Below are positions 28,005 through 57,242 of a stretch of DNA of 64,000 bases, piece after piece. Position 1 is the first letter of the stretch. Each line of letters begins with the position of its first letter. Made by a program: the position numbers and the translations under genes. The notes beneath the pieces were generated by a model that saw only the letters and a list, made by a program, of their open reading frames with translations, was not told the origin of the DNA and ran no database searches. Location: positions 1-64,000 of IMG/VR virus record IMGVR_UViG_3300046007_008124, one strand, 5' to 3'. Source of the DNA: a virus.

Positions 28005-30974
28005 ATGGCTTACCAAAATATTAATCAATATGTCTATCAAAAAAATAGAATTGGTCTAGAATATGATAGTATGGATATGTCACTAGCCTCTGACGAAAGA
28101 GACTATAGTGAAGAAGTTGTATTCTCGCCTTTTATAATTGCTGAAACATACGGTAAAAAACTACCAATAAATATTGATATTGATAATCCATTAACAGTAC
28201 AACCGTTAAATCTTAGTTATAAAAATTATAATCAAAATAATATTTTTGTTTCTCAAAATTATTATAACCCAAATGATGAATTATTAAATTGTTTAACAGC
28301 TGATACTGTTTGTGATATTGGTTTAACTGGTATCGATAATGGTTTAGTAAATAAAATGACTGGTGAAACATTAAATTTTACTGAAGGTATTTTTGAAGAT
28401 TCTGTAAAGTTTAATAGAATGTACTACGATAGAAGAATGAAAATGATACAAGTAACCGGATATACCGGAACTTATAGTCGTTTTTCTGGATTTACAAAAC
28501 AAACATTATATGAAGTTGTAAGTAAAAATCATCCACAATTTGGAAAATATCATGAACTATATGGTGGGTTTTACCAAGGGTTTTATAAACTATTTGGGTA
28601 TGACTATGAAATTTTACCAGAAAGAGTTACAAAAGGTTGGTCTGTTGAAATGGTTTTAAAACCAAGGTTATCAAATGAGTTTAGTCCTGGACCAAATGAA
28701 ACAACTTTAAACTTATTATATCCTCAAAATAAAAATACGTTTTTTTATATGGGGACAAGAGCTGAAAATAAATTTTATCATCACGCAGATGGTAGTCCAA
28801 AATGTTTTACAGGTTACACAAGAGTTACAACACCACTTGCAAATTGTTTACAAACTTGTGCTTGTTGTAATAAAGCTATAACAAATAGTAGATGTATATT
28901 TGTTTACCCACCAAGGTCAAAAAATAATCAACACGACCCACACGCAAATTATGGTTGTGATAAATGTAATGGTGTTAATAGTGTTAAAATAAGTTGTGGT
29001 TGCGGTTGTAATGAATCACCTTGTGATACTTGCGGTTGGGAATGTCAAACACACCAATGTGAAACAATATTCTACCCAACACCAACACCAACACCAACAC
29101 CAAGTCCAACACCGACTTGTCAAGATGTAACACCTATTTGTACACCTAGTTGTGCAACTTGTAATGATTGTGTTGATTGTGTTGATTGTGGAACAACTGG
29201 TTATACATCAATAGAAGATACTTGTGAGAAAGATCCGTTATTTGATTTAATGTCAAATAATATTTCATTTAAATTATGTGGTGACCCAAAAAACCCATCA
29301 ATTGGTGTTAAAGTTTTAAGATTTACCGGTGGATGTGAAACAACAGGAACTTGTGTTACCGGACAAACCTATATGACCGGATATACAATTCAAGAATATT
29401 GTTCACCACCAATATACCCAAGATGTGAAAAAGAAAATCCTTCTTGGTTAAATTTGGAACATTGGTTTCAAGTCGATGTTGTTTGGAGAAGGTATACAAA
29501 TTATGATTTTTGTGATTTAAAATATTTTGGTGGACTTGCGGATATAACAGAAATTAAATATTTAGATTCTTTAGCAAATAATACCGTCAATTTAATTAAG
29601 CCACCTTTAACTCATACAAATGAATTTGGAGAAACAATTGAAATTGTTAATTTAAATAAAAAGTGGTTAGATGAGAAAAAGGATAGACTTGGCAGATTAC
29701 GAATTTATGTTAATGGAAAACCAATATATACTTTAGAAAATTTTGAAGAGGTTATTCCAAGAGCACTAAATACAGATAAAGAAAGACAATTAGCGGTACC
29801 ATTTAATATTTCTTGGGGTGGAGGAACACAAGGTCTTCACGAAAATTTAACATTTTCATCTTGTACCGGTTTAACCTCAAATTATATCCAAGACCCTGAA
29901 TGTTTTCCAACATCAGTTTTAAGTGGGACAACATTATCTGGGTTAACAACAAATATATTATTAGAAAAAGAATTTGGTGGAACGTTTGAAGGTGGTATTT
30001 CACAATTTAGAATGTATGTTGAACCTTTAACTGGTGATGAAATTAAACACAACTTTTTATTGTTAAAAGATAAATTTGCAATGTTTGACCCAGATTGTCC
30101 AGATTGTGGTGATGATTTCTGTGAGGTTGATGATTTTACTTATGTTATTAATGATGTAACAACAACCACAACAACAATACCGGTTACAACAACCACAACA
30201 ACATTTAATCCATATCTTTTAATAACGCAAGATTTTGAACCAATTATAACTCAAGATAACGATAATATTATTTGGTATTGGCCAACACCAATGGTTGGTG
30301 GATTTAGTCCTGATAGTATTTTATTTGGTAGAACGTATATTCAAGATAACAGAGATCAAAATTATTTAATTCAAAATCATTTTAATCAAAAATTAAATTC
30401 AAAAACATTAACACAAAGATATTGGGACGACAATGGATGGTGGGGTGACCAAGGATATTTACCACATTGTGTTGGTTATGCTTGGGCTCATTGGTTAGAA
30501 GATGGTCCAGTTGAACAGTCTGGTATTCCACCAATTATAAAACCAATAGACATTTATAAAAATGCACAAAAACTTGACGAATGGTACGGTGAAAATTATG
30601 ATGGAACTTCTGTAAGGGGTGGTGTTAAATTTTTACAACAACAAAAGAAAGTAAAATCATATTATTGGACATATGATTTAAACACACTTATAAATACTGT
30701 TTTAAATGTAGGACCAGTTGTTGTTGGTACAAACTGGTATTATGGAATGTTTTATCCGGATAAAAATGGTTTAATTAAAGTTAGGGGTGCTTTAGCTGGT
30801 GGACATGCTTATATAATTAATGGTATTGATACCAAAACAAAACAGTTTAGAATAAAAAATAGTTGGGGTAAAAGTTGGGGAAAACAAGGTCGCGCATTTA
30901 TTTCATTTACTGATATGACAAGATTAATTAGAGAACAAGGTGAAATTTGTTTAGCAACAGAAATAAAATCATAA
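28005..30974 (+). CDS. large putative virion protein: LamG-like region, Cys-rich and Pro/Thr inserts, C-terminal papain-like (C1) peptidase
   Basis: FEGGISQFRMY...IKHNF; PTPTPTP and T-rich linkers; DQGYLPHC, GGHA, KNSWGKSWG catalytic motifs. Confidence 0.8.
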   Translation: MAYQNINQYVYQKNRIGLEYDSMDMSLASDERDYSEEVVFSPFIIAETYGKKLPINIDIDNPLTVQPLNLSYKNYNQNNIFVSQNYYNPNDELLNCLTADTVCDIGLTGIDNGLVNKMTGETLNFTEGIFEDSVKFNRMYYDRRMKMIQVTGYTGTYSRFSGFTKQTLYEVVSKNHPQFGKYHELYGGFYQGFYKLFGYDYEILPERVTKGWSVEMVLKPRLSNEFSPGPNETTLNLLYPQNKNTFFYMGTRAENKFYHHADGSPKCFTGYTRVTTPLANCLQTCACCNKAITNSRCIFVYPPRSKNNQHDPHANYGCDKCNGVNSVKISCGCGCNESPCDTCGWECQTHQCETIFYPTPTPTPTPSPTPTCQDVTPICTPSCATCNDCVDCVDCGTTGYTSIEDTCEKDPLFDLMSNNISFKLCGDPKNPSIGVKVLRFTGGCETTGTCVTGQTYMTGYTIQEYCSPPIYPRCEKENPSWLNLEHWFQVDVVWRRYTNYDFCDLKYFGGLADITEIKYLDSLANNTVNLIKPPLTHTNEFGETIEIVNLNKKWLDEKKDRLGRLRIYVNGKPIYTLENFEEVIPRALNTDKERQLAVPFNISWGGGTQGLHENLTFSSCTGLTSNYIQDPECFPTSVLSGTTLSGLTTNILLEKEFGGTFEGGISQFRMYVEPLTGDEIKHNFLLLKDKFAMFDPDCPDCGDDFCEVDDFTYVINDVTTTTTTIPVTTTTTTFNPYLLITQDFEPIITQDNDNIIWYWPTPMVGGFSPDSILFGRTYIQDNRDQNYLIQNHFNQKLNSKTLTQRYWDDNGWWGDQGYLPHCVGYAWAHWLEDGPVEQSGIPPIIKPIDIYKNAQKLDEWYGENYDGTSVRGGVKFLQQQKKVKSYYWTYDLNTLINTVLNVGPVVVGTNWYYGMFYPDKNGLIKVRGALAGGHAYIINGIDTKTKQFRIKNSWGKSWGKQGRAFISFTDMTRLIREQGEICLATEIKS

Positions 30975-31005
30975 TATAAAACATATTTATTAAATAAAAA
31001 AAACT

Positions 31006-34000
31006 ATGGCAGATAAAAGAATAACCGACTTACCTTTAATATTATCTGGTGATATATCAACACAAGATGTATTACCAATAGTAGATGTCAATCTAGACAT
31101 TACAAATAAAATTGAGGTAGATCAATTAAAATCATATATATTAACAGGTGTTAATGATTATTATGTTACTGGTGGTACCTATTCTAATGGAACAATAACA
31201 TTAGGGAGACAAAATGGTTCTTTATCAATTAGCGGTTTATACACTGGATCAACAGATGTTTTTGTAACTGGTGGTACCTATGATAACACAACTGGAACAT
31301 TAACTTTAAAAGATAATAACGGAACGTCATTTGGTGTAACTGGATTTACAACTGGTGGTACTGGGACTTCTTTATATGAAGTTGGTTCTGGAACTGACTC
31401 AACACAAAGGGTTGGTGTTAATAATGTTGCAATCGGTAATTGTTCTGCTGTTTTAGCTGGATCCGGAAACACTGTAATATCAGAATTTTCTTTTATTGGT
31501 GGAGGTTATAATAATACTGCTGGTTTTAGTGGTGGTGTTAATTTTGTTTATAATGAAACATTTACAGGTAATATACCTTCATCAGGATTTTACGGTTCAA
31601 TTCCACCATCATCAACACTTTCCGGTCTTGGTTCTGGTTCAACTTTTTCATTTTATTTTTCAACTCAAACAACTTTAAGTAATGTTTATGTTGACAATCA
31701 AGGTAGTGGATATGTTAGTGGTGATACATTAACATTTAACGGTTCAAATTTTGGTGGTGTAACACCTGCCGATAATGTTACAGTTCAAATCAACACATTA
31801 GGTGGTTCAAACATCGTTATTGGTGGTGGTCAAGGAAATACTGCAAATAGAGACTCATCAACAATTAGTGGTGGTTATATAAATAAAAGTAACGCAAACT
31901 GCTCAACAATCGGTGGTGGTTGTCGTAACATTATTTCAAATGATTCTTGTTACTCAACAATTAGTGGTGGTAGAAGAAATACCGGATACGGTTGTTACGG
32001 AGTAATTAGTGGTGGTCGTTGTAATGAAACTGGTGCTTATGGTACAATAACTGGAACATTTAATCAAGTGTATACCGGTGGTACTTTAAATGGAACTTTT
32101 TCTGGTGGTTATAACCCAACATCAACGACATCTGGTTATGGATTTGATGCTTCTTTTGGTTTTGTTTTTAATTTTGGTACTTTATCTAGTGTTAATATTC
32201 TTGGTGGTGGTAATCGATATATTGGAAATGATACTTTATTTTTTAATGGTAATATATTTCCTGGTGGAACAACTGGTATTGATGATGTAACATTTCAAGT
32301 TAGTACATCAATAAATAACTATGCAACAGTAGCTGGTGGATGTTGTAATACTGCATCTGGTGAATACTCAACAATTAGTGGTGGGTATGAAAATACAGTA
32401 TCCGGTGATTATTCAACTATTGGTGGGGGTTCTTGTAACACAATTAATACTAATTCGTGCTATTCAACTATTGGTGGTGGTGATGATAATACTATCCTTC
32501 AAGGTGATGTTGCAACAATCAGTGGTGGTGAAAATAATACGATAAGTGGTGCTTATTCATTTATTGGTGGTGGTTATAATAATATAATAACAAGTTCTGA
32601 TGCAACAATTGGTGGTGGTTGTAATAACACTGCAAGTGGTTACAAATCATTTATTGGTGGTGGAGAAAATAACGTTTCTGGACGAAATAATTTTGTTAGT
32701 GGAATAAATAGTTCTGTATATACTGGTGGTACTTTAAATAATACTTACGGTGGTATCTCACCAACATCAACATCAAGTGGTACTGGATCTGGGGTATTAT
32801 TTAGTTTTGATTTTGTTCTTGGTGTATTACAAACCATCCAAATACAAAACGGAGGTTCTGGTTATTCTAATGGTGAAACACTATATTTTAACGGTGGATT
32901 ATTTGGTGGTGGTTCATCTCCTTTAGATGATGTTTGGTTAAACATCCAAACAGAAAATAGCACACATACAACCGTAAGTGGCGGCTATTGTAACACATCA
33001 AGTGGGGATTACTCAACCGTAAGTGGTGGATATAGAAACACATCAAGTTGTTATAGTTCAACAGTAAGTGGAGGTATTAATAACAAATCAAGTGGTAATT
33101 CTTCAACCGTAGGAGGTGGTCTTGAAAATACATCAAGTTGTTGTTATTCAACAGTAAGTGGGGGACGTAGAAATACATCAAGTGGTTATCATTCAACCGT
33201 AAGTGGTGGATACCGTAATACATCAAGTGGTCAATATTCAACCGTAAGTGGCGGACAATTTAACACATCAAGTGGTAATTATTCATTTGTTGGTGGTGGA
33301 CAATGTAACGCGTCAAACTCTATTAACTCAACCGTAAGTGGTGGATTTTGTAATACAACAAGTGGAACTTACTCAACAATAGGTGGAGGTAATAATAATA
33401 AGTCTAGTGGTGGTTATTCAACACTAAGTGGTGGTCAAAATAATGTTGCCGGTGGTACACATTCATTTATTGGTAGTGGTTTTGGTAACGTTTCAGGTGT
33501 TAATGGATTTGTTACTGGTGTTACAGGTTTTGTATATACTGGAGGAACATTTAATAGTACATTCACCGGTGTTAGTCCAACTTCAACAAGTAGTGGATTA
33601 GGATCCAATGCGTTTTTTAACTTTAGTTTCCTTGGTGGTGTATTACAAAGTGTTACAGTACAATCAGCAGGATCTGATTATGTAAACGGAGATATACTAT
33701 ATTTTAATGCCGCTTCATTTTTTAGTACATCACCTCTTAATGATGTTTGGATAACAATATCAAGTGCTAGTAATTCATTTACAACAGTAGTTGGTGGTAG
33801 TCAAAACACATCAAGTGGATATCTATCAATTGTTGGTGCTGGTTATCAAAATACATCAAGTGGTTGTTATTCATTTATTGGTGGTGGATGGTGTAACACA
33901 ACGGTAGGTGATTGCTCAATGATACTTGGTGGTTATGCAAATAAATCTATCGGTACAAGAAGTGCTGTTGTGGGTGGTCAGAATATTGTAGCAACAGAAG

Positions 34001-34164
34001 ATGATATGACATATATGCCAAGTGCGAACATCCAATCAACCGGATATATTTATTTTGGAGACGTTAACACAAATGGTTCTTGGAGAATGAGTATATCTGG
34101 CGCAACATTTATAATTGAAAAAAGAGTCGGAGGTGTTTGGGTTGTGTCCGGAACATTCGTATAA
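31006..34164 (+). CDS. tail-fibre-like protein with 15-aa (S/T)(V/I)(S/G)GG beta-roll repeats
   Basis: KRITDLP N-terminus, YEVGSGTDSTQR motif, repeat arrays, four ~90-aa inserted modules. Confidence 0.75.
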   Translation: MADKRITDLPLILSGDISTQDVLPIVDVNLDITNKIEVDQLKSYILTGVNDYYVTGGTYSNGTITLGRQNGSLSISGLYTGSTDVFVTGGTYDNTTGTLTLKDNNGTSFGVTGFTTGGTGTSLYEVGSGTDSTQRVGVNNVAIGNCSAVLAGSGNTVISEFSFIGGGYNNTAGFSGGVNFVYNETFTGNIPSSGFYGSIPPSSTLSGLGSGSTFSFYFSTQTTLSNVYVDNQGSGYVSGDTLTFNGSNFGGVTPADNVTVQINTLGGSNIVIGGGQGNTANRDSSTISGGYINKSNANCSTIGGGCRNIISNDSCYSTISGGRRNTGYGCYGVISGGRCNETGAYGTITGTFNQVYTGGTLNGTFSGGYNPTSTTSGYGFDASFGFVFNFGTLSSVNILGGGNRYIGNDTLFFNGNIFPGGTTGIDDVTFQVSTSINNYATVAGGCCNTASGEYSTISGGYENTVSGDYSTIGGGSCNTINTNSCYSTIGGGDDNTILQGDVATISGGENNTISGAYSFIGGGYNNIITSSDATIGGGCNNTASGYKSFIGGGENNVSGRNNFVSGINSSVYTGGTLNNTYGGISPTSTSSGTGSGVLFSFDFVLGVLQTIQIQNGGSGYSNGETLYFNGGLFGGGSSPLDDVWLNIQTENSTHTTVSGGYCNTSSGDYSTVSGGYRNTSSCYSSTVSGGINNKSSGNSSTVGGGLENTSSCCYSTVSGGRRNTSSGYHSTVSGGYRNTSSGQYSTVSGGQFNTSSGNYSFVGGGQCNASNSINSTVSGGFCNTTSGTYSTIGGGNNNKSSGGYSTLSGGQNNVAGGTHSFIGSGFGNVSGVNGFVTGVTGFVYTGGTFNSTFTGVSPTSTSSGLGSNAFFNFSFLGGVLQSVTVQSAGSDYVNGDILYFNAASFFSTSPLNDVWITISSASNSFTTVVGGSQNTSSGYLSIVGAGYQNTSSGCYSFIGGGWCNTTVGDCSMILGGYANKSIGTRSAVVGGQNIVATEDDMTYMPSANIQSTGYIYFGDVNTNGSWRMSISGATFIIEKRVGGVWVVSGTFV

Positions 34165-34189
34165 ATAAAATAAAAAAATAAAATAAAAA

Positions 34190-37100
34190 ATGGGATTTAA
34201 TACAGACATATTAAGTGCAACAACAATAAGTGGTGGAACATTCTATGGTGATGGTTCCGGATTAGTTGATAACACAATTACCGAAATTATAAATTCACCA
34301 ACACAGAATCCACTTAATGTTAACACAAGTAATGATTATTTACCAATTACTGGTAATGACCAATATCAAGATGAAGCAAGTAACTATATTTCTTGGACAA
34401 ATGGGTCAAATAATGGGACAGGATTTAATCCTTGGACCATAACTACACAACCAAATACTGGTGTGTTTTTAGGTAATCCAGCGTCGGATGGTATGGGAAC
34501 CGCCGGTATTGGAACAAACGCATTTGCTCTTTTTGCAACTGACGGATCAAATTATGTATCAACATCAAGAACATTTACATCTGGAATGAATGTTGGTGAT
34601 GTATTTAGTTTTTATTGGGCGATAAATTTTGACGCAAATGGTGGTAATAAAGGTTTTGATTTAAAAGCTGGTGGTACAACAATTTTTAATGCTAATAATA
34701 ATAATTCTGCAACAATAACATCAAACTTATCTTCACCTAATAACATTATTGATAGTGGTTATGGTACAACACCAATGTTAGTTACTCTAACTAGAACAAG
34801 TGATATTCTTTATAATATAACAATAACATCTAGAAGTGGTGGACCAACTTATTCTGCATCAATAAATTCACCATTGGTTGTCAATGAAATTAATTTTTAT
34901 TGTGGTGCTCAAGGTGATGGTTTAGGACAAAGGAATTTATTTTTTAATCAACTTTTAATTACAAAAACAACAGAGTTATTAAAAATAACAGTTGATGATT
35001 TGGGAAGTTTGTTTGGTGGTGGGTCTTTATATGAAGTTGGTTCCGGTACAGACTCAACACAAAGATGTGGTGTTAATAATGTTGCTAGTGGCAATTGTTC
35101 TATTGTTGCAGGTGGTGATTATAACACATCATTATCACCTTCTTCAGTTATAAGTGGTGGTAAATGTAATACAGCAGACTGTAATTTTTCAACCGTAAGT
35201 GGTGGTTATTCTAATAAAACTTATGGTGGTTGTTCATTTGTAGGTGGCGGTGTTCGTAACACAGCAAGTAATAACTTTTCAATAGTTGGTGGTGGTTGTA
35301 TCAACACATCAAGTGGTAACTACTCAACAATAAGTGGTGGTCGTCAAAATACATCAAGTGATTATTATTCAACCGTAAGTGGCGGTCGTCAAAATACATC
35401 AAGTAGTTGTTATTCAACTATAAGTGGTGGTCGTCAAAATACATCAAGTAGTTGTTATTCAACTATAAGTGGTGGTTATCGTAATGTTTCAGGAATAAAC
35501 GGAACCGTAAGTGGTGTTTACAATCAAACATATTTAGGTAGCACATTAAATGGAACATTTAATTCAATATCTCCATCATCAACATCTTCTGGTTATGGTA
35601 ATGGTGCAATATTTAATTTTGTTTTTAACACCGGAAGTTTATCTACTGTTACTCTTGTAACAATTGGTTCTGGATATGTAAACGGAAATTTATTAACCTT
35701 TGACGGAACTTTATTTGGTGGATCAAGTGGAACCGACGATGTTACATTAAATATTAATACACAAAACATAGGAAATAGTTCAACCGTAAGTGGAGGTCGT
35801 GGTAACACATCAATTGGTGGATATTCAACCGTAAGTGGGGGTGTTGGTAACACATCAAGTGCGTGTTATTCAACAATAAGTGGTGGAGTAAATAACACAT
35901 CAAGTTGTAATTATTCATTTGTTGGTGGAGGTCGCCAAAACACATCAAGTGGTGACCTTTCAACGATTGCCGGTGGTCTTCAAAACGCATCAAGTTGTAA
36001 ATATTCAACCGTAAGTGGTGGTGCTTTTAATACATCAAGTAGTGATAATTCATTTATTGGTGGTGGACTTAGAAATACAACAAGTGGACAATATTCAACT
36101 ATAAGTGGTGGTTATTGTAATGTTTCAGGAATAAATGGAATCGTAAGTAGTTTTTCTAATCAAACATATTTAGGAAGTACATTAAATGGAACATTTAATT
36201 CAATATCTCCATCATCAACATCTTCTGGTTATGGTAATGGTGCAACATTTAATTTTGTGTTTAACACAGGGAGTTTATCTACTGTTACTCTTGTAACAAT
36301 TGGTTCTGGATATGTAAATGGAGATTTATTAACCTTTGACGGAACTTTATTTGGCGGATCAAGTGGAACCGATGATGTCACTTTAACTATTAACACATCA
36401 ACAATAGGAAATTGCTCAACCGTAAGTGGAGGTCGTGGTAACACATCAAGTGGAGATATATCAACCGTTGGTGGTGGTCGTTTTAACACATCAAGTGGAG
36501 ATATATCAACCGTAAGTGGTGGTTGGCAAAACACGTCAAGTGGATATAACTCAACAATAAGTGGGGGATATTGTAATACATCAAGTGGATATAACTCAAC
36601 CGTAAGTGGGGGATGTTGTAATACATCAAATGGTTGTGGATCATTTATTGGTGGTGGACGAAATAACACAATAAATTGTTTTTTTAATACAATTGGTGGT
36701 GGTCAAAATAACACATCAATTGGACAACAGTCTATAATTGGTGGTGGTTCTAGTAATGTGGCATTTGGTAGTGCTTCATTTATCGGTGGTGGTAGTCAAA
36801 ACACATCAAATGGCGGTGGGTCAACTATTAGTGGTGGAGTCGCTAACACATCAAGTGGTGATTCTTCAACCGTAAGTGGTGGTCGTTTTAACACATCAAT
36901 TGGCTGTTGCTCAACCGTAAGTGGTGGTTATTGTAATGTTTCAGGAATAAATGGAACCGTAAGTGGATTGTATAATCAAACATATTTAGGAAGCACATTA
37001 AATGGAACATTTAATTCAATATCTCCATCATCAACATCTTCTGGTTATGGTAATGGTGCAACATTTAATTTTTTGTTTAACACAGGAAGTTTATCTACTG

Positions 37101-37783: not shown

Positions 37784-37800
37784 AATTAAATAAATTTAAA

Positions 37801-38322: not shown

Positions 38323-38340
38323 ATCAAAAATAAAACAAAA

Positions 38341-38528: not shown

Positions 38529-38558
38529 AAAACCCCACCTTTAAAAGTGGGGTTTTTT
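38529..38558 (+). terminator. intrinsic terminator
   Basis: AAAACCCCAC-CTTTAAAA-GTGGGGTTTTTT. Confidence 0.85.
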
Positions 38559-38593
38559 ATACACTTTTTTGTTACAAATAATATAATTGTATT

Positions 38594-47700: not shown

Positions 47701-48312
47701 GATACCTCTTCCGTTACAACTATGGGTAGTATGTTTAATAATGCAACATTATTTAACCAACCAATTGGTACTTGGATTACATCTTTAGTTACAAATATGA
47801 CTCTTATGTTTGCTGGCGCAACATCATTTAACCAACCAATTGGAACCTGGGATGTATCTTCGGTTATAACTATAAATGCTATGTTTGATACTGCAATATC
47901 ATTTAACCAACCAATTGGAACCTGGGATGTGTCAAATATTACAGATATGAGCGGTATGTTTCAAAGTGCTACATCATTTAACCAACCAATTGGAACTTGG
48001 AATACATCGTTAGTTACAAATATGATTAGTATGTTTAATAATGCAACATTATTTAACCAACCAATTGGTACTTGGGACGTTTCATTAGTGACAAGTATGA
48101 ATAATATGTTAGATAATTGTGGGTTAAGTCAAGCAAATTATGATAACTTACTTATAGGTTGGTCAATATTACCATCACTACAACTTGGTGTTACACTTGG
48201 TGCTTTAAATATACAATATACACAACCACCAAGTGCTGTGGCTTTAGCTAGAAATACAGTTTTAATTGGAACTTATGGATGGACAATTGTTGGTGATATT
48301 CCGGTACCATAA
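44731..48312 (+). CDS. surface/virion protein with Pro/Thr linkers and three PKD-like + DUF285 (BspA-type) repeat units
   Basis: Three V(D/Y)WGD...HTY units, each followed by 25-aa [20 protein letters not shown] repeats (75-bp period). Confidence 0.85.
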
Positions 48313-48361
48313 CCATTTATTTATTTATTTCATTTTTTATTTTTATCTTAAAAAATATTAG

Positions 48362-49606
48362 ATGAATACCATATTTGTTCAAATCGCATCATTTAGAGAT
48401 CCCCAACTTAATCCGACAATTAAAGATATGTTGGAAAATGCCAAATACCCAGAGAATTTAAGAATAGGAATTTGTAATCAATATAATCCGGAAGACGAAT
48501 TTAATTTAGATAAATTCAGAGATGATGATAGATTTAGAATTGATGATGTTTTAGATAAAGATTCACAAGGTGTTTGTTGGGCTCGCCACAAAGTACAACA
48601 AATGTATAGTGGAGAAACTTACACATTACAGATTGATTCTCATATGCGTTTTGAAAAAGATTGGGACAAGACTCTAATTGAAATGTTAAAGGGGTTACAA
48701 GATAAAGGATATAAGAAACCATTACTTACAGGTTATGTATCTTCTTTTGATCCGGAAAATGACCCAAAAGGAAGAGTAACGGAACCTTGGAGAATGGCTT
48801 TTGATAGATTTACACCGGAAGGTTGTGTTTTCTTTTTACCTGAAACAATACCAGGATGGAAAGAATTAAAAGAACCAATTACATCAAGATTTTATTCAGC
48901 ACATTTTTGTTTTACATTAGGTGAATTTTCAGTTGAGGTTCAACACGATCCAAATTATTATTTTCACGGAGAAGAAATATCAATTGCTGTTAGGGCATAC
49001 ACTTACGGATATGATTTGTTTCACCCACATAAAGTTGTTATCTGGCACGAATATACAAGAAAGGGAAGAACAAAACATTGGGATGTTGATTCGGAGTGGT
49101 ATAAGAAAAATGACGCATCACATAAAAGAAATAGAGAACTATTGGGAATTGATGGTTTAGTATTTTCTGGTGATAGTTCATTATATTTTGGTACCGAAAG
49201 AACAATTAGAGATTATGAAAAATATTCCGGAATTCTTTTTGAGAAAAGAGCTGTACAACAATATACAATAGATAAAAAATACTCACCAAATCCATACGAA
49301 TATAAAACAGAAGAAGAATGGAAGGATAGTTTCCTTTCAATATTTAAACATTGTATTGACCTTTCATTTGATATGGTTAAAGAAACAGATTATGATTTTT
49401 GGGTTGTTGCATTTCATAATGGTAAAGATGAAACATTATATAGAAGAGATGCCGACCAAAATGAGATTGCAATGATGATGAAAGATCCAGATAGATATTG
49501 TAAAATATGGAGAGAGTTTAATACAACGGAAAGACCAAAGTATTGGGTGGTTTGGCCACATAGTACATCAAAAGGTTGGTGTGATAGAATAACTGGGAAT
49601 TTATGA
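48362..49606 (+). CDS. GT60-like polypeptide GlcNAc-transferase (Skp1-Hyp Gnt1 family)
   Basis: IFVQIASFRD, GVCWAR, LQIDSHMRF, FHGEE, YGYDLFHP. Confidence 0.85.
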   Translation: MNTIFVQIASFRDPQLNPTIKDMLENAKYPENLRIGICNQYNPEDEFNLDKFRDDDRFRIDDVLDKDSQGVCWARHKVQQMYSGETYTLQIDSHMRFEKDWDKTLIEMLKGLQDKGYKKPLLTGYVSSFDPENDPKGRVTEPWRMAFDRFTPEGCVFFLPETIPGWKELKEPITSRFYSAHFCFTLGEFSVEVQHDPNYYFHGEEISIAVRAYTYGYDLFHPHKVVIWHEYTRKGRTKHWDVDSEWYKKNDASHKRNRELLGIDGLVFSGDSSLYFGTERTIRDYEKYSGILFEKRAVQQYTIDKKYSPNPYEYKTEEEWKDSFLSIFKHCIDLSFDMVKETDYDFWVVAFHNGKDETLYRRDADQNEIAMMMKDPDRYCKIWREFNTTERPKYWVVWPHSTSKGWCDRITGNL

Positions 49607-51267
49607 TTACATTAGTAACTGGTCTTTGGGATATTGGTAGAGGTGAATTATCTGATGGGTGGTCAAGATCATTTGATCACTATTTAGATAAATTTTCACA
49701 ACTATTAAAGGTTGATAACAATATGATAATTTTTGGTGATCAGAAATTAAAAGAGTTTGTTTTTAAATATAGAACAGAGGAAAATACTCAATTTATATTA
49801 AAACCAGTTGATTGGTTTAAAAACAACGAGTTTTATGAATTAATCCAAAACATTAGAAAAAATCCATCTTGGTATAATCAAGTAGGTTGGTTAAAAGAGT
49901 CAACACAAGCAAGACTTGAGATGTATAATCCACTTGTTATGTCAAAGATGTTTTTATTACACGACGCAAAACTTTTAGATAAGTTTGATTCAAAATTATT
50001 ATACTGGATTGATGCCGGACTAACAAACACGGTACATCCTGGATATTTTACACACGACAAAGTTTTAGATAAGATACCAAAATTATTTAAAAAATTCACA
50101 TTTGTTTGTTTTCCATATAAAGCAGAAACAGAAGTTCACGGATTTAAATATGATAAGATGTGTGAGTTATCCGGAAAAAATACAGAAATAGTTGCTCGTG
50201 GTGGATTTTTTGGTGGAGATAAAGATTCAATATCACAGATGAATGTTCTTTATTATAACTTGATGATGGAAACATTAAAGTCTGGTTTAATGGGAACAGA
50301 AGAATCTTTATTTACAATTCTTCTATATCAAAATCCATCACTTATTGATTATTGTGAAATAGAATCAAATGGATTACTATATAAATTTTTTGAGGATGTT
50401 AAAAATGATAAGGTTGTATTAAAAAATAAAGGAAAGAAAATTGTGACAAATTATAATGGTGACGTTGGTTTATATGTAATTACATTTAACTCACCAAAAC
50501 AATTTGAAGTTTTAATAAAATCAATGTTGGATTATGATTCAAATTTTATTCATAAGACCAAAAAGTTTTTACTGGATAATTCAACCGATCTTTCAACAAC
50601 TCCGAGGTATAGAGAACTATGTGAAAATTACAATTTTCAACACATTAAAAAGAATAACATTGGTATAACCAGAGGTAGAGTTTTTGTTGCCGAACATTTT
50701 AACGAACAAGAAAATTTATCACATTATTTTTTCTTTGAGGATGATTTTGGTTTCTATTCCGGAAAAGATATTACCTGTAAAAACGGTTTTATAAGAAAAA
50801 TTAATAATATATATGAAAAAACTTTAGAAATAATTAAAAAAGAAAATTTTGACTATTTAAAATTGAATTTTACCGAATTTTATGGTTCTCACAATAAACA
50901 ATGGAGTTGGTATAATGTAAGTCAACAATATAGAGAAAGTCACTGGCCAAACAACCCAAAGTTACCAAAACAAGGACTTGACCCAAATTCACCAAATCTT
51001 GAATTTAAACATATACAATCACATAAAGGATTGGCCTATGTTTCTGGTGAAATTTATTTATCCAACTGGCCAATATTAATGACAAAGGAAGGAAATTATA
51101 ATTGTTATATTAAAACAAAATTCCAACATCCATACGAACAGACTTTAATGTCAAATTGTTATCAAGAAATAATTAAAGGAAATATTAATCCAGGATTACT
51201 TCTTGCAACACCAACAGAACACAATCGTTTTGATTTTTATGAATCTTCATTAAGAAAAGAGTGTTAA
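49603..51267 (+). CDS. HtrL/YibB-like glycosyltransferase fused to a GT-A-like domain
   Basis: TLVTGLWDIGR, YWIDAGL, GGFFGG, GTEES; C-terminal LLDNS and FFEDD. Confidence 0.7.
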   Translation: MITLVTGLWDIGRGELSDGWSRSFDHYLDKFSQLLKVDNNMIIFGDQKLKEFVFKYRTEENTQFILKPVDWFKNNEFYELIQNIRKNPSWYNQVGWLKESTQARLEMYNPLVMSKMFLLHDAKLLDKFDSKLLYWIDAGLTNTVHPGYFTHDKVLDKIPKLFKKFTFVCFPYKAETEVHGFKYDKMCELSGKNTEIVARGGFFGGDKDSISQMNVLYYNLMMETLKSGLMGTEESLFTILLYQNPSLIDYCEIESNGLLYKFFEDVKNDKVVLKNKGKKIVTNYNGDVGLYVITFNSPKQFEVLIKSMLDYDSNFIHKTKKFLLDNSTDLSTTPRYRELCENYNFQHIKKNNIGITRGRVFVAEHFNEQENLSHYFFFEDDFGFYSGKDITCKNGFIRKINNIYEKTLEIIKKENFDYLKLNFTEFYGSHNKQWSWYNVSQQYRESHWPNNPKLPKQGLDPNSPNLEFKHIQSHKGLAYVSGEIYLSNWPILMTKEGNYNCYIKTKFQHPYEQTLMSNCYQEIIKGNINPGLLLATPTEHNRFDFYESSLRKEC

Positions 51268-51293
51268 CGATATATTTATTGTAAAAACAATAA

Positions 51294-51758
51294 ATGGAGT
51301 TCTTTATAAAGAAAAATGCGACACTTCCGGTTTTAAAAATTACAGTCGTAAAAGACGGACGAAGTGATTATAATAATTTTATGGATTTTATTGAGGAATC
51401 TTCCATTTTTTTCTCAATGATTGATACCGAAACCGGTATTCCGAAAATACTAACAAGACCAGCAGGATTTGTAAAAAAAGAATTTATGGACCTAAACACT
51501 CCGGTTGAGTACTATGTCTATTATCAATTTACATCAAAAGATACAAGAAAAGTTGGAAGATTTGAGGGTCAATTTTTATTTAGAAATGATGATGGAGTTT
51601 TAATCCTTCCAATAAGAGATAAACTATTTATAAACATACAAGAAAGTTTCATCGCAGATGATCTTCCTTATGAGAGTTGTTATGTTTCAGAATTTCCTTG
51701 TTGTGTAAAAACACCAGTAATTCCAGTTACAACAACCACAACAACATTACTATTTTAA
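51294..51758 (+). CDS. BppU-like (baseplate upper protein N-terminal-like) small structural protein
   Basis: FFIKKNATLP...YQF...DT...GRFEGQF...ILP; Thr-rich tail. Confidence 0.55.
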   Translation: MEFFIKKNATLPVLKITVVKDGRSDYNNFMDFIEESSIFFSMIDTETGIPKILTRPAGFVKKEFMDLNTPVEYYVYYQFTSKDTRKVGRFEGQFLFRNDDGVLILPIRDKLFINIQESFIADDLPYESCYVSEFPCCVKTPVIPVTTTTTTLLF

Positions 51759-51773
51759 AAAAAATAATTAACT

Positions 51774-54200
51774 ATGGCAAATTTACCAATATCAGTATTA
51801 CCTAATGTAAATGCAAGTGGTGTTACACAAAATGACTTACTTGTTATTGTAAACTATGATGTATTAACTGGGAACACAAAAAACATAACAGCATTAGATT
51901 TTAAAACTTATATAAATTCCGGATCAACACAATTATATGAAGTTGGTTCTGGTACAGACTCAACACAAAGAATTGGTGTTAACGCAAATGCTATTGGTGA
52001 TTACTCTGTTGTTAGTGGTGGACAAAACAATTTTGCAAATAGTGGTTACACTTTTGTTGGTGGTGGTTTAAATAATACAGCATCTGGCGAATATTCAACA
52101 ATTGGTGGTGGAGCTTTTAACACATCAGATGGTGTTTATTCAACAGTAGGTGGTGGAACAAATAACATATCAATTGGGCCTACATCATTTATTGGTGGCG
52201 GACAACAAAATACATCAAGTGGGGATAATTCAACAGTAAGCGGTGGGTACAAAAACACATCAAGTTGTAATGGTTCAACCGTAAGTGGGGGTATTCAAAA
52301 TACATCAAGTGGACAATACTCAACAGTAAGTGGTGGTCGTGGTAATACACCAAATGGATTTGCATCAACCATTAGTGGAGGTTTTAGTAATACATCAAGT
52401 GCGTACTATTCTTTTGTTGGTGGTGGGTGTGCAAATACTATTGACAGCATCATCGCTTCAAGTAGTTATTCTGTCTTTGGTTCAACAATCGGTGGAGGTT
52501 CTTATAACACAATATCATCTTATAGTAGTTGCTACGATTCATATGGTAATACAATTGCTGGAGGAACTTGTAACACAACAGTTTCATCATATTATAATGG
52601 ACAAACAATTGGTGGGGGTGTATGTAATGTAACCTCCAATGATTTTTCAACAGTAAGTGGGGGTTATCTTAACACATCAAGTGGTTCTGTTTCAACCGTA
52701 AGTGGTGGACTTAGAAACACATCAAACGGAAATTCTTCAACTATAAGTGGTGGTCAGTGTAACACATCAAGTGATTGTAACTCAACCGTAAGTGGCGGTT
52801 TTGCCAACACGGCTTCAAATAGTTATTCAACAGTAGGTGGTGGTGGTCAAAATAGGTCAATCGGATGTTCATCAACAGTAAGTGGTGGACTACAAAATAC
52901 TGCAAGTTGTAGTTCTTCAACCGTAAGTGGTGGTCGTTTAAACACATCAAGTGGTCAATATTCATTTATTGGTGGTGGATCTGGTAATACAGCATTTAAT
53001 CTTTATTCAACAGTTGTTGGTGGTAGAGAAAATACATCAAGTGATGATTACTCATTTATTGGTGGTGGTTGTGGTAATAAATCAATTGGTTGTTATTCAA
53101 CCGTAAGTGGTGGTTTGCTTAACACATCAAGTAGTTCTTGTTCATTTGTTGGTGGTGGTCAGACAAACACAACAATTGGTGGTGTATCGTTTATTGGTAG
53201 TGGAAGTCAAAATACTTCATCTGGATGTAATTCAGTTGTCACTGGTGGGTTCTGTAATAGAACAATAGGTGTATGTAACTTCATTGGTGGTGGACAATCA
53301 AATATAACATCAGGTAGTACATCAACAGTAGTCGGCGGCCTTGAAAATAATTCAATAAACAATATGACATTTGTTGGTGGAGGTTTTCAAAATACATCAA
53401 GTGGAGTTTATTCAACAATTGGTGGTGGTCGTCAAAATACATCAAGTGGTTGTTATTCAACAATTGGTGGTGGTTATAAAAACACAACAAATAATAATTC
53501 AGTAACTGTAAGTGGTGGAGTACGTAACACATCAAGTGGTTATAGCTCAACAATTAGTGGGGGGCAACGTAATACTAGTTCAGCCTATGGTTCATTTGTT
53601 GGTGGAGGTAGACTTAACGTTAGTGCAAACTCATCTTCAGTTGTTACTGGAGGTGATTCAAATACCGCTTTAGATTTTTACTCATCAATTAATGGTGGAA
53701 ATCAAAACACAACAAATGGTTTTGCCTCAACTATTGGTGGTGGTTGGAAAAATACGTCTAACGGTATTTGTTCTGTTATTGGTGGTGGTTCATTTAATAT
53801 TTCTAGTACAGATTTTTCAGCAATACTTGGTGGATCTGGAAACACAGCAAATGGTGCTTGTAGTTTTATTGGTGGAGGTCTTAATAATGTAACAAACGAT
53901 AAAGCAATTGTTATTGGTGGTGGTAGAGCTAATCAAGTTACTGCACCATGTTCTGTAATTTTAGGTGGGCAAAATAATTCAATTTGTACAATTTATTCTG
54001 GTATATTGGGTGGGTGCGGAAACTCTGTTGGTCACAACTGTTCATTTATTGTTGGTCATGGTATATCAACATCATGCCCAAATACAACATATGTCAATTG
54101 TTTAAATATTGTAAGTTTACCAACAGAAGCAAGTTTACCTCTCCCAACAGGAACATTATATAGATGTACATCGGATAATTCAATTTATTCGGTACCATAA
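51774..54200 (+). CDS. tail-fibre-like 15-aa repeat protein
   Basis: LPISVLP N-terminus, YEVGSGTDSTQR, long STVSGGxxNTSS array, C-terminal HNCSFIVG...TTYVNCL. Confidence 0.75.
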   Translation: MANLPISVLPNVNASGVTQNDLLVIVNYDVLTGNTKNITALDFKTYINSGSTQLYEVGSGTDSTQRIGVNANAIGDYSVVSGGQNNFANSGYTFVGGGLNNTASGEYSTIGGGAFNTSDGVYSTVGGGTNNISIGPTSFIGGGQQNTSSGDNSTVSGGYKNTSSCNGSTVSGGIQNTSSGQYSTVSGGRGNTPNGFASTISGGFSNTSSAYYSFVGGGCANTIDSIIASSSYSVFGSTIGGGSYNTISSYSSCYDSYGNTIAGGTCNTTVSSYYNGQTIGGGVCNVTSNDFSTVSGGYLNTSSGSVSTVSGGLRNTSNGNSSTISGGQCNTSSDCNSTVSGGFANTASNSYSTVGGGGQNRSIGCSSTVSGGLQNTASCSSSTVSGGRLNTSSGQYSFIGGGSGNTAFNLYSTVVGGRENTSSDDYSFIGGGCGNKSIGCYSTVSGGLLNTSSSSCSFVGGGQTNTTIGGVSFIGSGSQNTSSGCNSVVTGGFCNRTIGVCNFIGGGQSNITSGSTSTVVGGLENNSINNMTFVGGGFQNTSSGVYSTIGGGRQNTSSGCYSTIGGGYKNTTNNNSVTVSGGVRNTSSGYSSTISGGQRNTSSAYGSFVGGGRLNVSANSSSVVTGGDSNTALDFYSSINGGNQNTTNGFASTIGGGWKNTSNGICSVIGGGSFNISSTDFSAILGGSGNTANGACSFIGGGLNNVTNDKAIVIGGGRANQVTAPCSVILGGQNNSICTIYSGILGGCGNSVGHNCSFIVGHGISTSCPNTTYVNCLNIVSLPTEASLPLPTGTLYRCTSDNSIYSVP

Positions 54201-54236
54201 TTAAAACTAAAACATATTTATAAATAAAAATAAAAA

Positions 54237-57200
54237 ATGGCAAATAAAAGAATATCACAATTACCTTATGTAGGAAACACTGGTTATACATCAAATGATA
54301 TAATGCCAATTGTAAATTATGATGTATCAAGTGGTACAACAAAAAATACACCTCTTGTTGATTTAAAAGCTTATATTTTAAGTGGTTCAACAGATTATTA
54401 TGTAACAGGTGGAACTTATTCTGGTGGAACATTAGTTTTGGATAGACAAAATGGTTCAGTAACAATAAATGGTTTTACAACTGGAACAACATTATATGAA
54501 GTTGGTTCTGGAGTTGACTCAACACAAAGAATAGGTGTTAATAATGATGCAAGTGGGGATTACTCAACCGTAAGTGGTGGTCGTCAAAACACATCAAGTG
54601 GTTATTATTCTTTTATTGGTGGTGGACAACAAAATCTAATAACAGGATATACAGCAACAATAAGTGGTGGGTATTTAAACACATCAAGTGGTTGTTATTC
54701 ATTTATTGGTGGAGGAGTTGCTAATAATGTAACAAATATTAAATCGACCGTAGGTGGTGGTGGTTGTAATACCTCAAGTGGTTATTATTCAACCATAAGT
54801 GGTGGAAGATTAAATAAATCAAGTAATTGTGGATCAACAGTAAGCGGTGGAGGACGTAACACATCAAGTAATTATAATTCAACCGTAAGTGGTGGTTATT
54901 GTAACACATCAAGTGGGGATAATTCAACCGTAAGTGGTGGACGTAGTAACACAGCAAGTAATTATAATTCAACTGTAAGTGGTGGTTATAGTAACACATC
55001 AAGTGGTTACGCCTCATTTGTTGGTGGTGGAGTAAATAACACATCAAGTGGTGATTGCTCAACCGTAGGTGGAGGTCGTAATAACACGTCAAATGGACCT
55101 GGAAACTTTATTGGTGGTGGACTTGCTAACTTTACCGACAATAAATTTTCAACTGTAAGTAGTGGATATCGTAACACATCAAGTGGTGGATATGCAACAG
55201 TAGGTGGGGGTTTTTGTAACACATCAAATGGTGATTTTTCTGTAATTGGTGGTGGTCGTGAAAACACATCACAAAATGATTTTGCGTCAGTTTTTGCTGG
55301 ATCTGGTAATACAGCATCAGGGTACTATAGTATTATTGGTAGTGGTATCAAAAATACAAATAATAGTGATCTTGGTTTTCTTGGTGGTGGTTTTTGTAAT
55401 ACATCAAGTGGTTACGATGGAGTACTTGGTGGTGGTGGATGTAATACATTAAATAATTTACTTGGTGGTGTAATTGCCGGTGGTAGATTAAATACTGTTG
55501 TTGGTATCGCCCCAAATACAATTGGGGGTGGTTTTGGAAATAATATATTTGCTTTTGGTCCATCAACAATTAGTGGTGGATACTTAAACACAACAAGAAG
55601 TGACTACTCTACAGTAGGTGGTGGTTCATTAAATACAATAGATTCAATAACAACACAATCTGGTTATTATGTCTTTGGTTCATCAATAGGTGGGGGTTCT
55701 TGTAATACAATATCATCTTATAGTGCATCTTATGATTCTTTTGGTAATACAATTGCCGGAGGAACTTGTAATGTAACTGTATCATCATATAGCAATGGTC
55801 AAACAATTGGTGGAGGATATCGTAATACAACATTGTGTGATTACGCAACCGTAAGTGGTGGTTATCGTAACACATCAAGCGGTAATATCTCAACCGTAAG
55901 TGGAGGTATTAATAACGCATCAAGCGGTAATATCTCAACCGTAAGTGGCGGTCGTTGTAACACATCAAGTGGTAATTCTTCAACCGTAAGTGGTGGTCGT
56001 AATAACACATCAAGTGGGGATTACTCAACCGTAAGTGGTGGTTATCGTAACACATCAAGCGGAAGTGGTTCATTTATTGGTGGGGGAGAAAATAATGTTT
56101 CAGGAATAAATGGAACCGTAAGTGGTGTTTATAATCAAACATACACTGGTGGAACTTTAAATGGAACATTTAATTCAATATCTCCATCATCAACATCTTC
56201 TGGTTATGGTAATGGTGCAACATTTAATTTTGTTTTTAACACAGGAATTTTAACTACTGTTAATCTTGTAACAATTGGTTCTGGATATGTAAACGGAGAT
56301 TTGTTAACATTTGATGGAACTTTATTTGGTGGATCAAGTGGAACCGATGATGTTACTTTAAATATTAATACACAAACAATTGGACCATTCTCAACTGTAA
56401 GTGGTGGTGTTAATAACACATCAAGTGGTAAATATTCAACCGTAAGTGGTGGAGTAAATAACACATCAAGTGGTGATAATTCATTTATTGGCGGTGGTGT
56501 ATGTAATACATCAATTGGTGCCGCTTCATTTATTGGTGGTGGCGTTCGAAACACATCAAGTGGTCAATATTCATTTATTGGTGGTGGACTTAGAAACACA
56601 TCAAACGGAAATTCTTCAACAATAAGTGGTGGATATCGTAACACATCAAGTGGTATATATTCATTTATTGGTACCGGAGAATGTAACACTATTGATTCTG
56701 CTTATTCAGTTGTAAACGGCGGAGTAAATAATACTTCACTTAATATATATAATAGTATATTAGGTGGTTCCGGAAATACAATAAATCACGACTTCTCAAG
56801 TGCCGTTGGTAAAGATGTCACGTCAGTTTCAGCTTGTACATTCCACGTAAATTATTTGGCGTTACAAAATACGCCAGAAACAGATAGTACTAATAACAAT
56901 TTCTTGGTTAGAGACACATCAACAGGTATTTTAAAAACAAGAGATATTTCTCAATCAGCAAACTACTCAACAAGTGCTATAACATCCTCACAAACCTTAA
57001 CTTGGGATAAAGTATATTGGGGTGTTAGTGGATCATCAAATGTTGATTTAACATTACCAACAACAACGTCAAAAGATGGTTACTTTTTAATAATTAAAGA
57101 CGAATCCGGAACCTCCGGATCTTTTAGAATAAGATTAACACCGGCATCGGGTTTGATTGATGGGAATTCATACGTTGATATGAATATAAACTATATGTCT

Positions 57201-57242
57201 CTTACCATTATGGTGAGAAACGGAAATTGGTATTTAATTTAA
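54237..57242 (+). CDS. tail-fibre-like 15-aa repeat protein with distinct C-terminal domain
   Basis: KRISQLP N-terminus, repeats, one copy of the shared module, terminal LTLP...IIKDE...IDG...GNWYLI. Confidence 0.75.
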   Translation: MANKRISQLPYVGNTGYTSNDIMPIVNYDVSSGTTKNTPLVDLKAYILSGSTDYYVTGGTYSGGTLVLDRQNGSVTINGFTTGTTLYEVGSGVDSTQRIGVNNDASGDYSTVSGGRQNTSSGYYSFIGGGQQNLITGYTATISGGYLNTSSGCYSFIGGGVANNVTNIKSTVGGGGCNTSSGYYSTISGGRLNKSSNCGSTVSGGGRNTSSNYNSTVSGGYCNTSSGDNSTVSGGRSNTASNYNSTVSGGYSNTSSGYASFVGGGVNNTSSGDCSTVGGGRNNTSNGPGNFIGGGLANFTDNKFSTVSSGYRNTSSGGYATVGGGFCNTSNGDFSVIGGGRENTSQNDFASVFAGSGNTASGYYSIIGSGIKNTNNSDLGFLGGGFCNTSSGYDGVLGGGGCNTLNNLLGGVIAGGRLNTVVGIAPNTIGGGFGNNIFAFGPSTISGGYLNTTRSDYSTVGGGSLNTIDSITTQSGYYVFGSSIGGGSCNTISSYSASYDSFGNTIAGGTCNVTVSSYSNGQTIGGGYRNTTLCDYATVSGGYRNTSSGNISTVSGGINNASSGNISTVSGGRCNTSSGNSSTVSGGRNNTSSGDYSTVSGGYRNTSSGSGSFIGGGENNVSGINGTVSGVYNQTYTGGTLNGTFNSISPSSTSSGYGNGATFNFVFNTGILTTVNLVTIGSGYVNGDLLTFDGTLFGGSSGTDDVTLNINTQTIGPFSTVSGGVNNTSSGKYSTVSGGVNNTSSGDNSFIGGGVCNTSIGAASFIGGGVRNTSSGQYSFIGGGLRNTSNGNSSTISGGYRNTSSGIYSFIGTGECNTIDSAYSVVNGGVNNTSLNIYNSILGGSGNTINHDFSSAVGKDVTSVSACTFHVNYLALQNTPETDSTNNNFLVRDTSTGILKTRDISQSANYSTSAITSSQTLTWDKVYWGVSGSSNVDLTLPTTTSKDGYFLIIKDESGTSGSFRIRLTPASGLIDGNSYVDMNINYMSLTIMVRNGNWYLI

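Follow-up and report, generated by a model that had tools for sequence, protein, structure and literature searches.

What do the glycosyltransferases and the sulfotransferase of a bacteriophage act on when their genes lie in the middle of its fibre genes? The question is raised by a 64,000-nucleotide stretch of DNA (the window), which is the first 64 kb of the single 92,077-bp virus contig IMGVR_UViG_3300046007_008124 with a GC content of about 30 %. An initial annotation of the window had proposed a virion glycosylation and sulfation system between positions 28005 and 57242, in which enzyme genes alternate with genes of matching acceptor-repeat proteins. Gene order and coordinates proved to be as described there, with all named genes on the + strand, and profile and structure searches recovered each of the named enzyme families, namely GT8, sulfotransferase, adenylyl-sulfate (APS) kinase, HxGH nucleotidyltransferase, DUF2061, GT60 and HtrL. 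Two assignments made by eye, an Aah/TibC-like (TIGR04414, PDB 4rap) and a GT9-like glycosyltransferase (GT) (AlphaFold2 (AF2) model and Foldseek), held as well. The block from 28005 to 58467 is best explained as the fibre module of a jumbo myovirus that is uncultured and has a genome of roughly 300 kb, and with moderate confidence we propose that soluble, cytoplasmic enzymes of this phage decorate its own fibre and proline-threonine (PT) linker/decoration proteins before or during assembly.

The priming enzyme would be a short TibC/Aah-like GT of 302 amino acids (aa) encoded at 39334..40242 (+), which carries an iron-finger motif and matches PDB 4rap with 1.1e-16. In the alignment with 4rap the catalytic Asp110 corresponds to D40, situated in an L-G-D motif, and Trp305 corresponds to W223. 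The iron-finger residues Cys339/Cys342/Cys358/Cys370 are represented one to one by C256/C259/C270/C282. None of these residues varies among 11 phage homologues, which range down to 29 % identity. The iron finger of TibC touches the protein substrate, heptosylation of AIDA-I affects the serines in N-S-G-G and N-T-S but not threonine, and the iron-finger TibC-like subfamily is known solely as protein GT (PMC4358343).

Serines in just these contexts are frequent in the neighbouring fibres. The four STVSGG fibres, present as the initial annotation had claimed, are encoded at 31006..34164 (fibre B, 1052 aa), 34190..37783 (fibre C, 1197 aa), 51774..54200 (fibre D, 808 aa) and 54237..57242 (fibre E, 1001 aa), all on the + strand. 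Their products consist of 16-19 % Gly, 15-18 % Ser and 11-13 % Thr and comprise 105 regular repeats with the consensus Y-S-T-[VI]-[SG]-G-G-x-x-N-T-S-S-G-x, the period of which is 15 residues and not 14 as first counted. Both the SGG and the NTS context are present in the repeat, with totals of 67 [VIL]SGG and 77 NTS motifs over the four fibres. Fibre B is related to LbR_Ice_bind (1.1e-9) and has 26 [VIL][SG]GG turns; in fibre C (24 [VIL]SGG, 29 NTS) the same repeats are broken by three copies of an inserted domain. Fibre D consists of beta-roll repeats almost throughout (34 [VIL][SG]GG turns) and matches the head of the trimeric autotransporter UspA1 (PDB 3pr7, 1.3e-18), and fibre E combines the repeats with a distinct C-terminal domain (sequence and domain search). 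From the match to 3pr7 the fibres are therefore predicted to be trimeric left-handed beta-rolls of the trimeric-autotransporter-head kind. They share the head repeats with the trimeric-autotransporter adhesins but do not belong to them, as neither a C-terminal membrane anchor nor a signal peptide was found by domain and sequence searches. Each fibre contains 15-27 cysteines, clustered at the variable repeat positions 1, 9, 14 and 15, which is odd for a protein assembled in the cytoplasm.

PT tracts, the second type of possible acceptor, occur in the products of 28005, 44270 and 44731, of which the latter two had been correctly described as PT-tract proteins. M1 (44270..44689, +), as judged from composition and sequence, starts with an N-terminal domain of 75 aa and ends in a (PT)n tail; all relatives have homologues, which measure 75-307 aa and differ in their tails. 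M2 (44731..48312, +) comprises an N-terminal domain, PT linkers and three blocks jointly holding six DUF285 repeat domains (PF03382, 3e-160). Just downstream lies the gene of a GT60-family enzyme (48362..49606, +; PF11397 2.6e-67, 228.2 bits compared to a cut-off of 21). GT60 was found in five of five related records and in 183 IMG/VR contigs, and its immediate upstream neighbour encodes a T/S/P run (at least 8) in 54 of 80 loci. A PDB sequence search with GT60 gave nothing useful, and a literature search found no characterised bacterial or phage member of this family.

Enzyme and repeat genes stay together in the lineage of this phage. The run GT8-TibC-like-GT9-like-sulfotransferase is kept between fibre genes in at least 10 lineage contigs, usually continues with APS kinase, nucleotidyltransferase, DUF2061 and then a small PT-tailed protein, and always stands after a homologue of the 28005 protein and at least one fibre, which is of the STVSGG, NIALG or collagen-like type. 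One sub-lineage (represented by L010) has no STVSGG fibre by the cassette; such fibres are encoded about 70 kb away on its larger contig. Relatives keeping the enzymes without the repeat proteins, which the initial annotation had named as an argument against its proposal, were thus not encountered wherever enough sequence was available. For comparison, 80 PhoH-centred 20-kb loci of the same lineage were set against 80 GT60-centred loci. The PhoH pattern scan was meant to give a diverse control but yielded this lineage only, and it serves as a within-lineage control and as a gauge of abundance and genome size. No ORF (open reading frame) with beta-roll or collagen repeats was present in the PhoH loci and a T/S/P run of at least 8 occurred in 6 of 1838 ORFs (0.3 %), compared to 156 of 1226 ORFs in the GT60-centred loci. 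The clustering of the enzymes with repeat proteins is not due to chance.

The strongest single piece of evidence is the phage genome G010 (IMGVR_UViG_3300043773_002546; 197 kb, 59 % GC, 96 % complete), which is otherwise unrelated and has 7 of 185 ORFs in common with the genome studied here. Five of these seven are contiguous and encode two beta-roll fibres, a sulfotransferase directly after them, a short TibC-like GT and a GT8-methyltransferase fusion. The module genes are 34-55 % identical to those in the window (55 % for GT8) and adjoin an SNF2 helicase gene instead of a tail or structural block. Neither common ancestry nor a shared structural block can therefore account for the linkage, and the enzymes have been transferred together with the fibres. 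The G010 module (L191:8529-17418) also lies by a trypsin-like protease gene, and its first fibre carries collagen and CBM5/12 domains.

More broadly, 573 or more IMG/VR contigs encode TibC-like domains, and the proteins concerned measure about 300, 400, 700 or 1000-1450 aa. For 11 of 14 clusters with less than 60 % mutual identity, a collagen-like, beta-roll or T/S/P-run protein is encoded within 10 kb, often within 2 kb. Six whole contigs (five diverse phages that were tiled and the one studied here) contain 1-14 such ORFs each, with the TibC-like gene 1.5-5.6 kb from one of them (Fisher combined p 0.006; 0.016 with a second, unlinked copy included). Giant proline-free collagen-like proteins with G-T-S and G-T-N triplets over thousands of residues are encoded beside the cassette or beside TibC-like fusion genes in other phages (L005:14940-20897, L013:1-6273). 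Among 50,697 GenBank phage records a TibC-like domain is present in four, including the cultured Microcystis phage Mel-JY01 (PP395634.1; L176:4750-8430). There it forms the C-terminal part (31 % identity) of a 1226-aa protein annotated as 'methyltransferase FkbM', the gene of which directly follows a 'structural protein' gene; this cyanophage offers an experimental handle. In bacteria, TibC-like genes are spread over at least 510 species with up to 36 % identity to the phage clade, and in none of the best 80 bacterial loci does a phage-type sulfotransferase or GT8 gene lie beside the TibC-like gene. These identities and neighbourhoods do not support the idea that the module as a whole came from bacteria recently.

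The rest of the block holds two candidate enzymes for extending the primed sugar, together with further enzyme genes. GT8 (38594..39334, +) matches PF01501 with 5e-22 and 79.1 bits (cut-off 24.3) over profile positions 5-251 of 253. The product of 40248..41132 (+) showed no Pfam match, including PF01075, and a PDB sequence search gave nothing useful; its AF2 model (predicted local distance difference test (pLDDT) 70) is closest to GT-B structures of the GT9 family in Foldseek, with 3tov as the best match (1.1e-8), followed by 1psw (WaaF), WaaC and TibC at template modelling scores of 0.5-0.6. It aligns weakly with the TibC-like family (hhalign probability 62 %), and by eye the usual position of the catalytic Asp reads G-L-G-K. 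Downstream follow a PAPS (3'-phosphoadenosine-5'-phosphosulfate)-dependent sulfotransferase (41134..41952, +; PF13469 1.5e-21) with canonical PAPS-binding motifs, a short APS kinase of 151 aa (41956..42411, +; PF01583 2.5e-20) and an HxGH nucleotidyltransferase (42408..42860, +; PF01467 1e-6). Next to GT60 a fusion is encoded (49603..51267, +) which consists of an HtrL/YibB-like domain (residues 2-249; PF09612 1e-21) and a C-terminal part of 300 aa. None of the block's enzymes possesses a transmembrane segment in a hydropathy scan.

Taken together, the following sequence of events can be envisaged, in which the acceptors, the donors and the effect on the virion are what we infer from the genes. 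The short iron-finger TibC-like GT would prime serines in the exposed beta-roll turns (S-G-G, N-T-S) of the four trimeric fibres, and GT8 and the GT9-fold enzyme would lengthen the primed sugar. The TPST-like sulfotransferase, supplied by the phage APS kinase using APS of the host, would sulfate the glycan or conserved tyrosines of the repeat. Separately, GT60, possibly together with HtrL, would glycosylate threonines of the M1/M2-type proteins, whose genes lie just upstream, within their Pro/Thr linkers. Of the earlier idea that a protein-priming GT stands beside its own acceptor, the residues marking the BAHT (bacterial autotransporter heptosyltransferase) family, the heptosylation contexts and the linkage are thus borne out, while protein modification itself stays a prediction. 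N-glycosylation of the N-T-S sequons was considered and dropped, since a GT41-type enzyme is not present.

Several results weigh against this proposal. The TibC-like enzyme scores 123.7 bits with TIGR04414 (E 8.6e-36, profile positions 77-373 of 374), which is below the equivalog cut-off of 200 bits. Three of the four sugar-binding residues are not kept (Thr226 to Leu, Lys230 to Ala, Arg286 to Ala); Lys and Arg occur 2-4 residues off the aligned positions, and longer phage forms retain an S-T-x-Q-A-K-x-W motif. Only 23 residues precede the catalytic domain, so that the N-terminal beta-barrel (TibC residues 1-97) is missing, and four residues are deleted in the region of the beta-hairpin thumb, which the dodecamer requires; phage forms of 400-1450 aa do have a barrel-like segment. 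By its sequence the enzyme is a genuine but minimal relative of the protein-modifying BAHT family, of which the oligomeric state and the sugar donor may differ from TibC. In addition, gmhA of the ADP-heptose pathway was not found in five complete or near-complete phages (four of the broad lineage and G010), so that heptose would have to be derived from the host or another sugar be used. Heptose as the sugar is doubtful because of this result and the changed residues. Furthermore, the GT8, GT9 and HtrL families are best known from the synthesis of the lipopolysaccharide (LPS) core. Many phages without such enzymes likewise possess Ser/Thr-rich fibres and PT linkers, and a matching acceptor is therefore a weak discriminator. 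The linkage statistics, finally, derive from crude ORF calls and arbitrary thresholds with many phylogenetically related loci, and they lend support, not proof.

The sulfation branch has its own difficulties. The APS kinase reaches 73.5 bits with PF01583 (cut-off 21.1) but stays under the cut-off of all NCBIfam models (70 compared to 138.7 bits). The HxGH enzyme is most similar to nicotinamide mononucleotide (NMN) adenylyltransferases in both NCBIfam and the PDB; neither ATP sulfurylase nor heptose-1-phosphate adenylyltransferase could be confirmed, as all matches are NMNAT-like. A Sat-type ATP sulfurylase was not found in the same five phages (CysDN was not searched). As far as the genes tell, the PAPS module is incomplete because of the short APS kinase, the NMNAT-like HxGH enzyme and the missing Sat-type sulfurylase, and of the module claimed initially the APS kinase stands; an ATP sulfurylase was found neither here nor in the complete relatives. 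The sulfotransferase gene is present in one of the four near-complete lineage genomes (absent from three), whereas the TibC-like gene is present in all four, and from this distribution glycosylation looks like the core and sulfation like an accessory of the lineage.

Concerning the target of the sulfate, an alternative that differs from our proposal in this point only has to be considered. The GTs could decorate the fibres while the sulfotransferase sulfates fibre tyrosines directly, as do TPST and the bacterial RaxST; this version we regard as possible though rather unlikely. A protein-atlas search based on language-model features instead of alignment placed the enzyme among nearly all-viral sulfotransferase clusters. 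Its sole PDB sequence matches are the tyrosylprotein sulfotransferases TPST1 and TPST2 (3e-5 with the single sequence, 1.2e-9 for TPST1 with a nine-sequence profile). With the AF2 model (pLDDT 78.5) as query, TPSTs take all of the first 12 places in Foldseek at 7.5e-9, with carbohydrate sulfotransferases 100- to 1000-fold weaker, although the ranking of folds among sulfotransferases is a weak guide to the substrate. Of the TPST catalytic residues Arg78, Glu99 and Lys158 (PMC10951654), the first and the last are represented by R13 and K90, both invariant, whereas the catalytic base Glu99 aligns with an invariant T34, so that the full TPST set is not present. At repeat position 1, tyrosine occurs more often than any other residue (38 % here, 40 % in G010), and the position of the G010 sulfotransferase gene immediately after the fibre genes fits as well. 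An acidic residue precedes 9 of 48 tyrosines of the Y-S-T-V type. TPST sites, however, are usually acidic. The sulfated glycan of the initial annotation thus keeps its sulfotransferase family, but with TPSTs as nearest solved relatives direct tyrosine sulfation appears as well supported as glycan sulfation.

The main alternative to decoration of the fibres is that the enzymes remodel the envelope of the host (LPS core, O-antigen or capsule) during infection, with their position among fibre genes being incidental. Such remodelling could serve superinfection exclusion or stop the progeny from re-adsorbing, and GT8, GT9 and HtrL/YibB are classic LPS-core families (by Pfam names and by the Foldseek matches to WaaC and WaaF). 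In addition, bacterial sulfotransferases often act on glycolipids or polysaccharides (a weak match to NoeE was obtained here), and a second sugar cluster lies among early genes at 12814-25101. The explanation is nevertheless improbable, since the iron-finger TibC-like subfamily is known as protein GT only and since an unrelated phage, with a very different GC content and hence a different host envelope, has received enzymes and fibres together. The neighbourhood of TibC-like and fibre genes in the divergent clusters speaks against it too, and Pfam searches of the block found no flippase, polymerase or lipid-carrier GT.

As a last explanation, the target could be a non-fibre phage protein, a host protein or the phage DNA. 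We know of no nucleic-acid substrates for the GT60, TibC-like and TPST-like families. Although phage GT clusters can hypermodify DNA (work cited in PMC12619734) and a dUTPase/dCTP-deaminase-like gene is present in the window, this explanation is highly improbable, as no base-hydroxymethylating enzyme was seen among the domain matches of the window and the cassette is located in the late fibre block away from the replication genes. DNA modification in particular was rejected for lack of a base-modifying enzyme in the window.

Among the known systems, decoration of the fibres by the phage enzymes comes closest to the pairs TibC-TibA and Aah-AIDA-I of Escherichia coli (BAHT family; PDB 4RAP, 4RB4). 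The GT-B core, the catalytic Asp, Trp305 and the four-Cys iron finger are common to both, the gene lies by that of a repetitive beta-solenoid protein with S-G-G and N-T-S serines in its repeats, and the enzyme is cytoplasmic and soluble. In contrast to TibC, the phage enzyme lacks the barrel and has a shortened thumb, which makes a dodecamer doubtful, and with Thr226/Lys230/Arg286 changed its donor may not be ADP-heptose. Its partner would be a trimeric left-handed beta-roll fibre (UspA1-like) instead of a right-handed autotransporter beta-helix, and the joining of GT8, a GT9-fold enzyme and a sulfotransferase has no counterpart in the best 80 bacterial loci.

The sole proven phage precedent cited is the virion glycosylation of mycobacteriophages, where glycans on the C-termini of capsid and tail-tube subunits were demonstrated experimentally (Freeman et al. 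2023, Cell Host Microbe, as cited in PMC12619734). There, too, the phage GTs are located with structural genes, but self-decoration is proven in that case and predicted from genes in the present one; as far as the citing paper describes it, the mycobacteriophage system relies on other enzyme families and includes no sulfation, TibC-like enzyme, GT60 or repeat-fibre acceptors. With TPST1/TPST2 (human), tick TPST and RaxST, the closest solved relatives by sequence and fold, the phage sulfotransferase shares the equivalents of the 5'-PSB (5'-phosphosulfate-binding) Arg and of Lys158; it differs in the residue aligned with Glu99 and in being cytoplasmic, phage-encoded and paired with its own APS kinase. 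The protist members of GT60 (the Skp1 hydroxyproline GlcNAc-transferase Gnt1 and the polypeptide alpha-GlcNAc-transferases; CAZy GT60) are related to the phage enzyme through the 228-bit family match, and the Pro/Thr tracts encoded beside it are the acceptor type of mucin-type GT60 members. The fibrils of giant viruses (Mimivirus, chloroviruses) are glycosylated by virus-encoded, host-independent enzymes, and their acceptors include collagen-like and Ser/Thr-rich proteins. These viruses have eukaryotic hosts and other enzyme sets, and no homology was established here.

More tentatively than the decoration itself, we suggest a mobile phage module in which beta-roll or collagen-like fibres are combined with a minimal TibC-type O-glycosyltransferase and a TPST-like sulfotransferase, which would yield sulfated, glycosylated fibres and be widespread in aquatic phages (hundreds of IMG/VR contigs). 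No description of phage TibC-like, GT60 or sulfotransferase genes as virion-modifying was found in the literature. If the suggestion is right, it would be the first case of a bacteriophage virion that is sulfated and of a bacterial virus with a sulfation system for protein tyrosines or glycans, and the TibC/Aah family would widen from the adhesins of a few pathogens to hundreds of phages from the environment. Receptor binding, host range, protease resistance and the stickiness of particles in lakes and seas would then hinge on a hidden chemistry of the fibres which genome-based host-range prediction overlooks. The small, soluble and self-contained enzyme set could be employed to O-glycosylate or sulfate repeat proteins in the cytoplasm. 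The system is also testable, since its genes are short, its repeat peptides are defined and no fewer than one of its carriers is in culture.

The 20 genes on the + strand between 28005 and 61390 are separated by gaps of -4 to 49 nt with three exceptions, namely 271 nt before GT8, 106 nt before the polymerase gene and 936 nt around a minus-strand ORF. The block is headed by a 989-aa protein (28005..30974, +) in which a Cys-rich region and linkers of the PT and poly-Thr types are combined with a papain-like peptidase at the C-terminus (PF00112 1.6e-5; phrog_16701 peptidase 3e-55); homologues with 64-73 % identity occupy the same position in 10 relatives. After fibre C follows a Cys-rich protein of 173 aa (37801..38322, +) without Pfam or NCBIfam match. 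The 271-nt gap between this last fibre-side ORF and GT8, the only sizeable one inside the block, contains a perfect palindrome with a 12-bp stem (38529..38556), possibly a terminator that parts the fibre genes from the enzyme genes. A TATAAT-containing promoter-like site is situated downstream of the hairpin (38558-38587), and from this succession the enzyme cassette may be its own transcription unit; promoter-like sites were no commoner in the scan than in shuffled sequence, and this one hairpin alone was noteworthy.

The minus-strand ORF (42822..43676, -) encodes 284 aa, is Lys-rich with CxxC pairs and gave a weak DUF7487 match only. In relatives DUF2061 directly follows the nucleotidyltransferase gene and no gene exists at this place; the ORF is therefore a recent insertion, probably a mobile or homing element and possibly a homing endonuclease. 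The DUF2061 protein itself (43797..44237, +; PF09834 3.3e-14) is the block's only product with a hydrophobic segment (hydropathy scan). Between the HtrL fusion and fibre D a 154-aa protein with a terminal poly-Thr run is encoded (51294..51758, +), the relatives of which are longer and have PT-linked C-terminal domains. Profile searches gave no match for the C-terminal part of the HtrL protein nor for the small ORFs at 37801 and 51294. The block is closed by a virion structural protein (57247..58467, +; phrog_1645 6.7e-49), with cyanophage counterparts annotated as virion structural protein.

Phage hallmarks in the window are PhoH, dUTPase, a family-B DNA polymerase and the phrog_1645 virion protein. 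Just past the window, the same contig encodes a tail sheath, a tail tube and a baseplate hub, and the phage is therefore a myovirus. The tail sheath (1121 aa; contig positions 69922-73287; phrog_23 5e-54) carries a Cys-flanked, Thr/Ser/Pro-rich insert at about residues 296-333 which is similar to the PT tracts encoded beside GT60. Related IMG/VR contigs of 91-150 kb are 28-51 % complete according to CheckV and near-complete relatives measure 274-322 kb; the contig therefore corresponds to about 30 %, or a third, of a roughly 300-kb jumbo phage genome. The lineage is abundant, with at least 582 IMG/VR contigs matching the PhoH patterns and 77-94 % identity to the PhoH of this phage among the 80 best listed matches. 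Cultured phages are distant (best polymerase matches 22-29 % identical). The truncated first ORF (2-2092, +) contains fn3, type IX secretion system (T9SS)-associated galactose-binding-like and GEVED domains, which hint at a host or gene donor in the Bacteroidota. Aquatic jumbo phages of Bacteroidota carrying core glycosyltransferases have been described recently (PMC12619734, 2025).

Over the whole window 11 GT-like genes can be supported instead of the 12 counted first, two of them under the Pfam cut-off. The second sugar cluster (12814-25101, -) lies among early/metabolic genes (PhoH, dUTPase, exonuclease) and comprises four GT2-type and two weak GT1/GT4-like GTs, a DegT-like aminotransferase, a PglD-like acetyltransferase and a CmcI-like methyltransferase. 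The cluster may provide or assemble the glycan that the fibre enzymes use, or its target may be a separate one. Its DegT-like ORF (226 aa; 18996-20401, -) matches just profile positions 23-99 of 360 and overlaps by 4 nt with a 242-aa ORF without Pfam match; to judge from this arrangement, 18996-20401 may represent a split or highly diverged aminotransferase.

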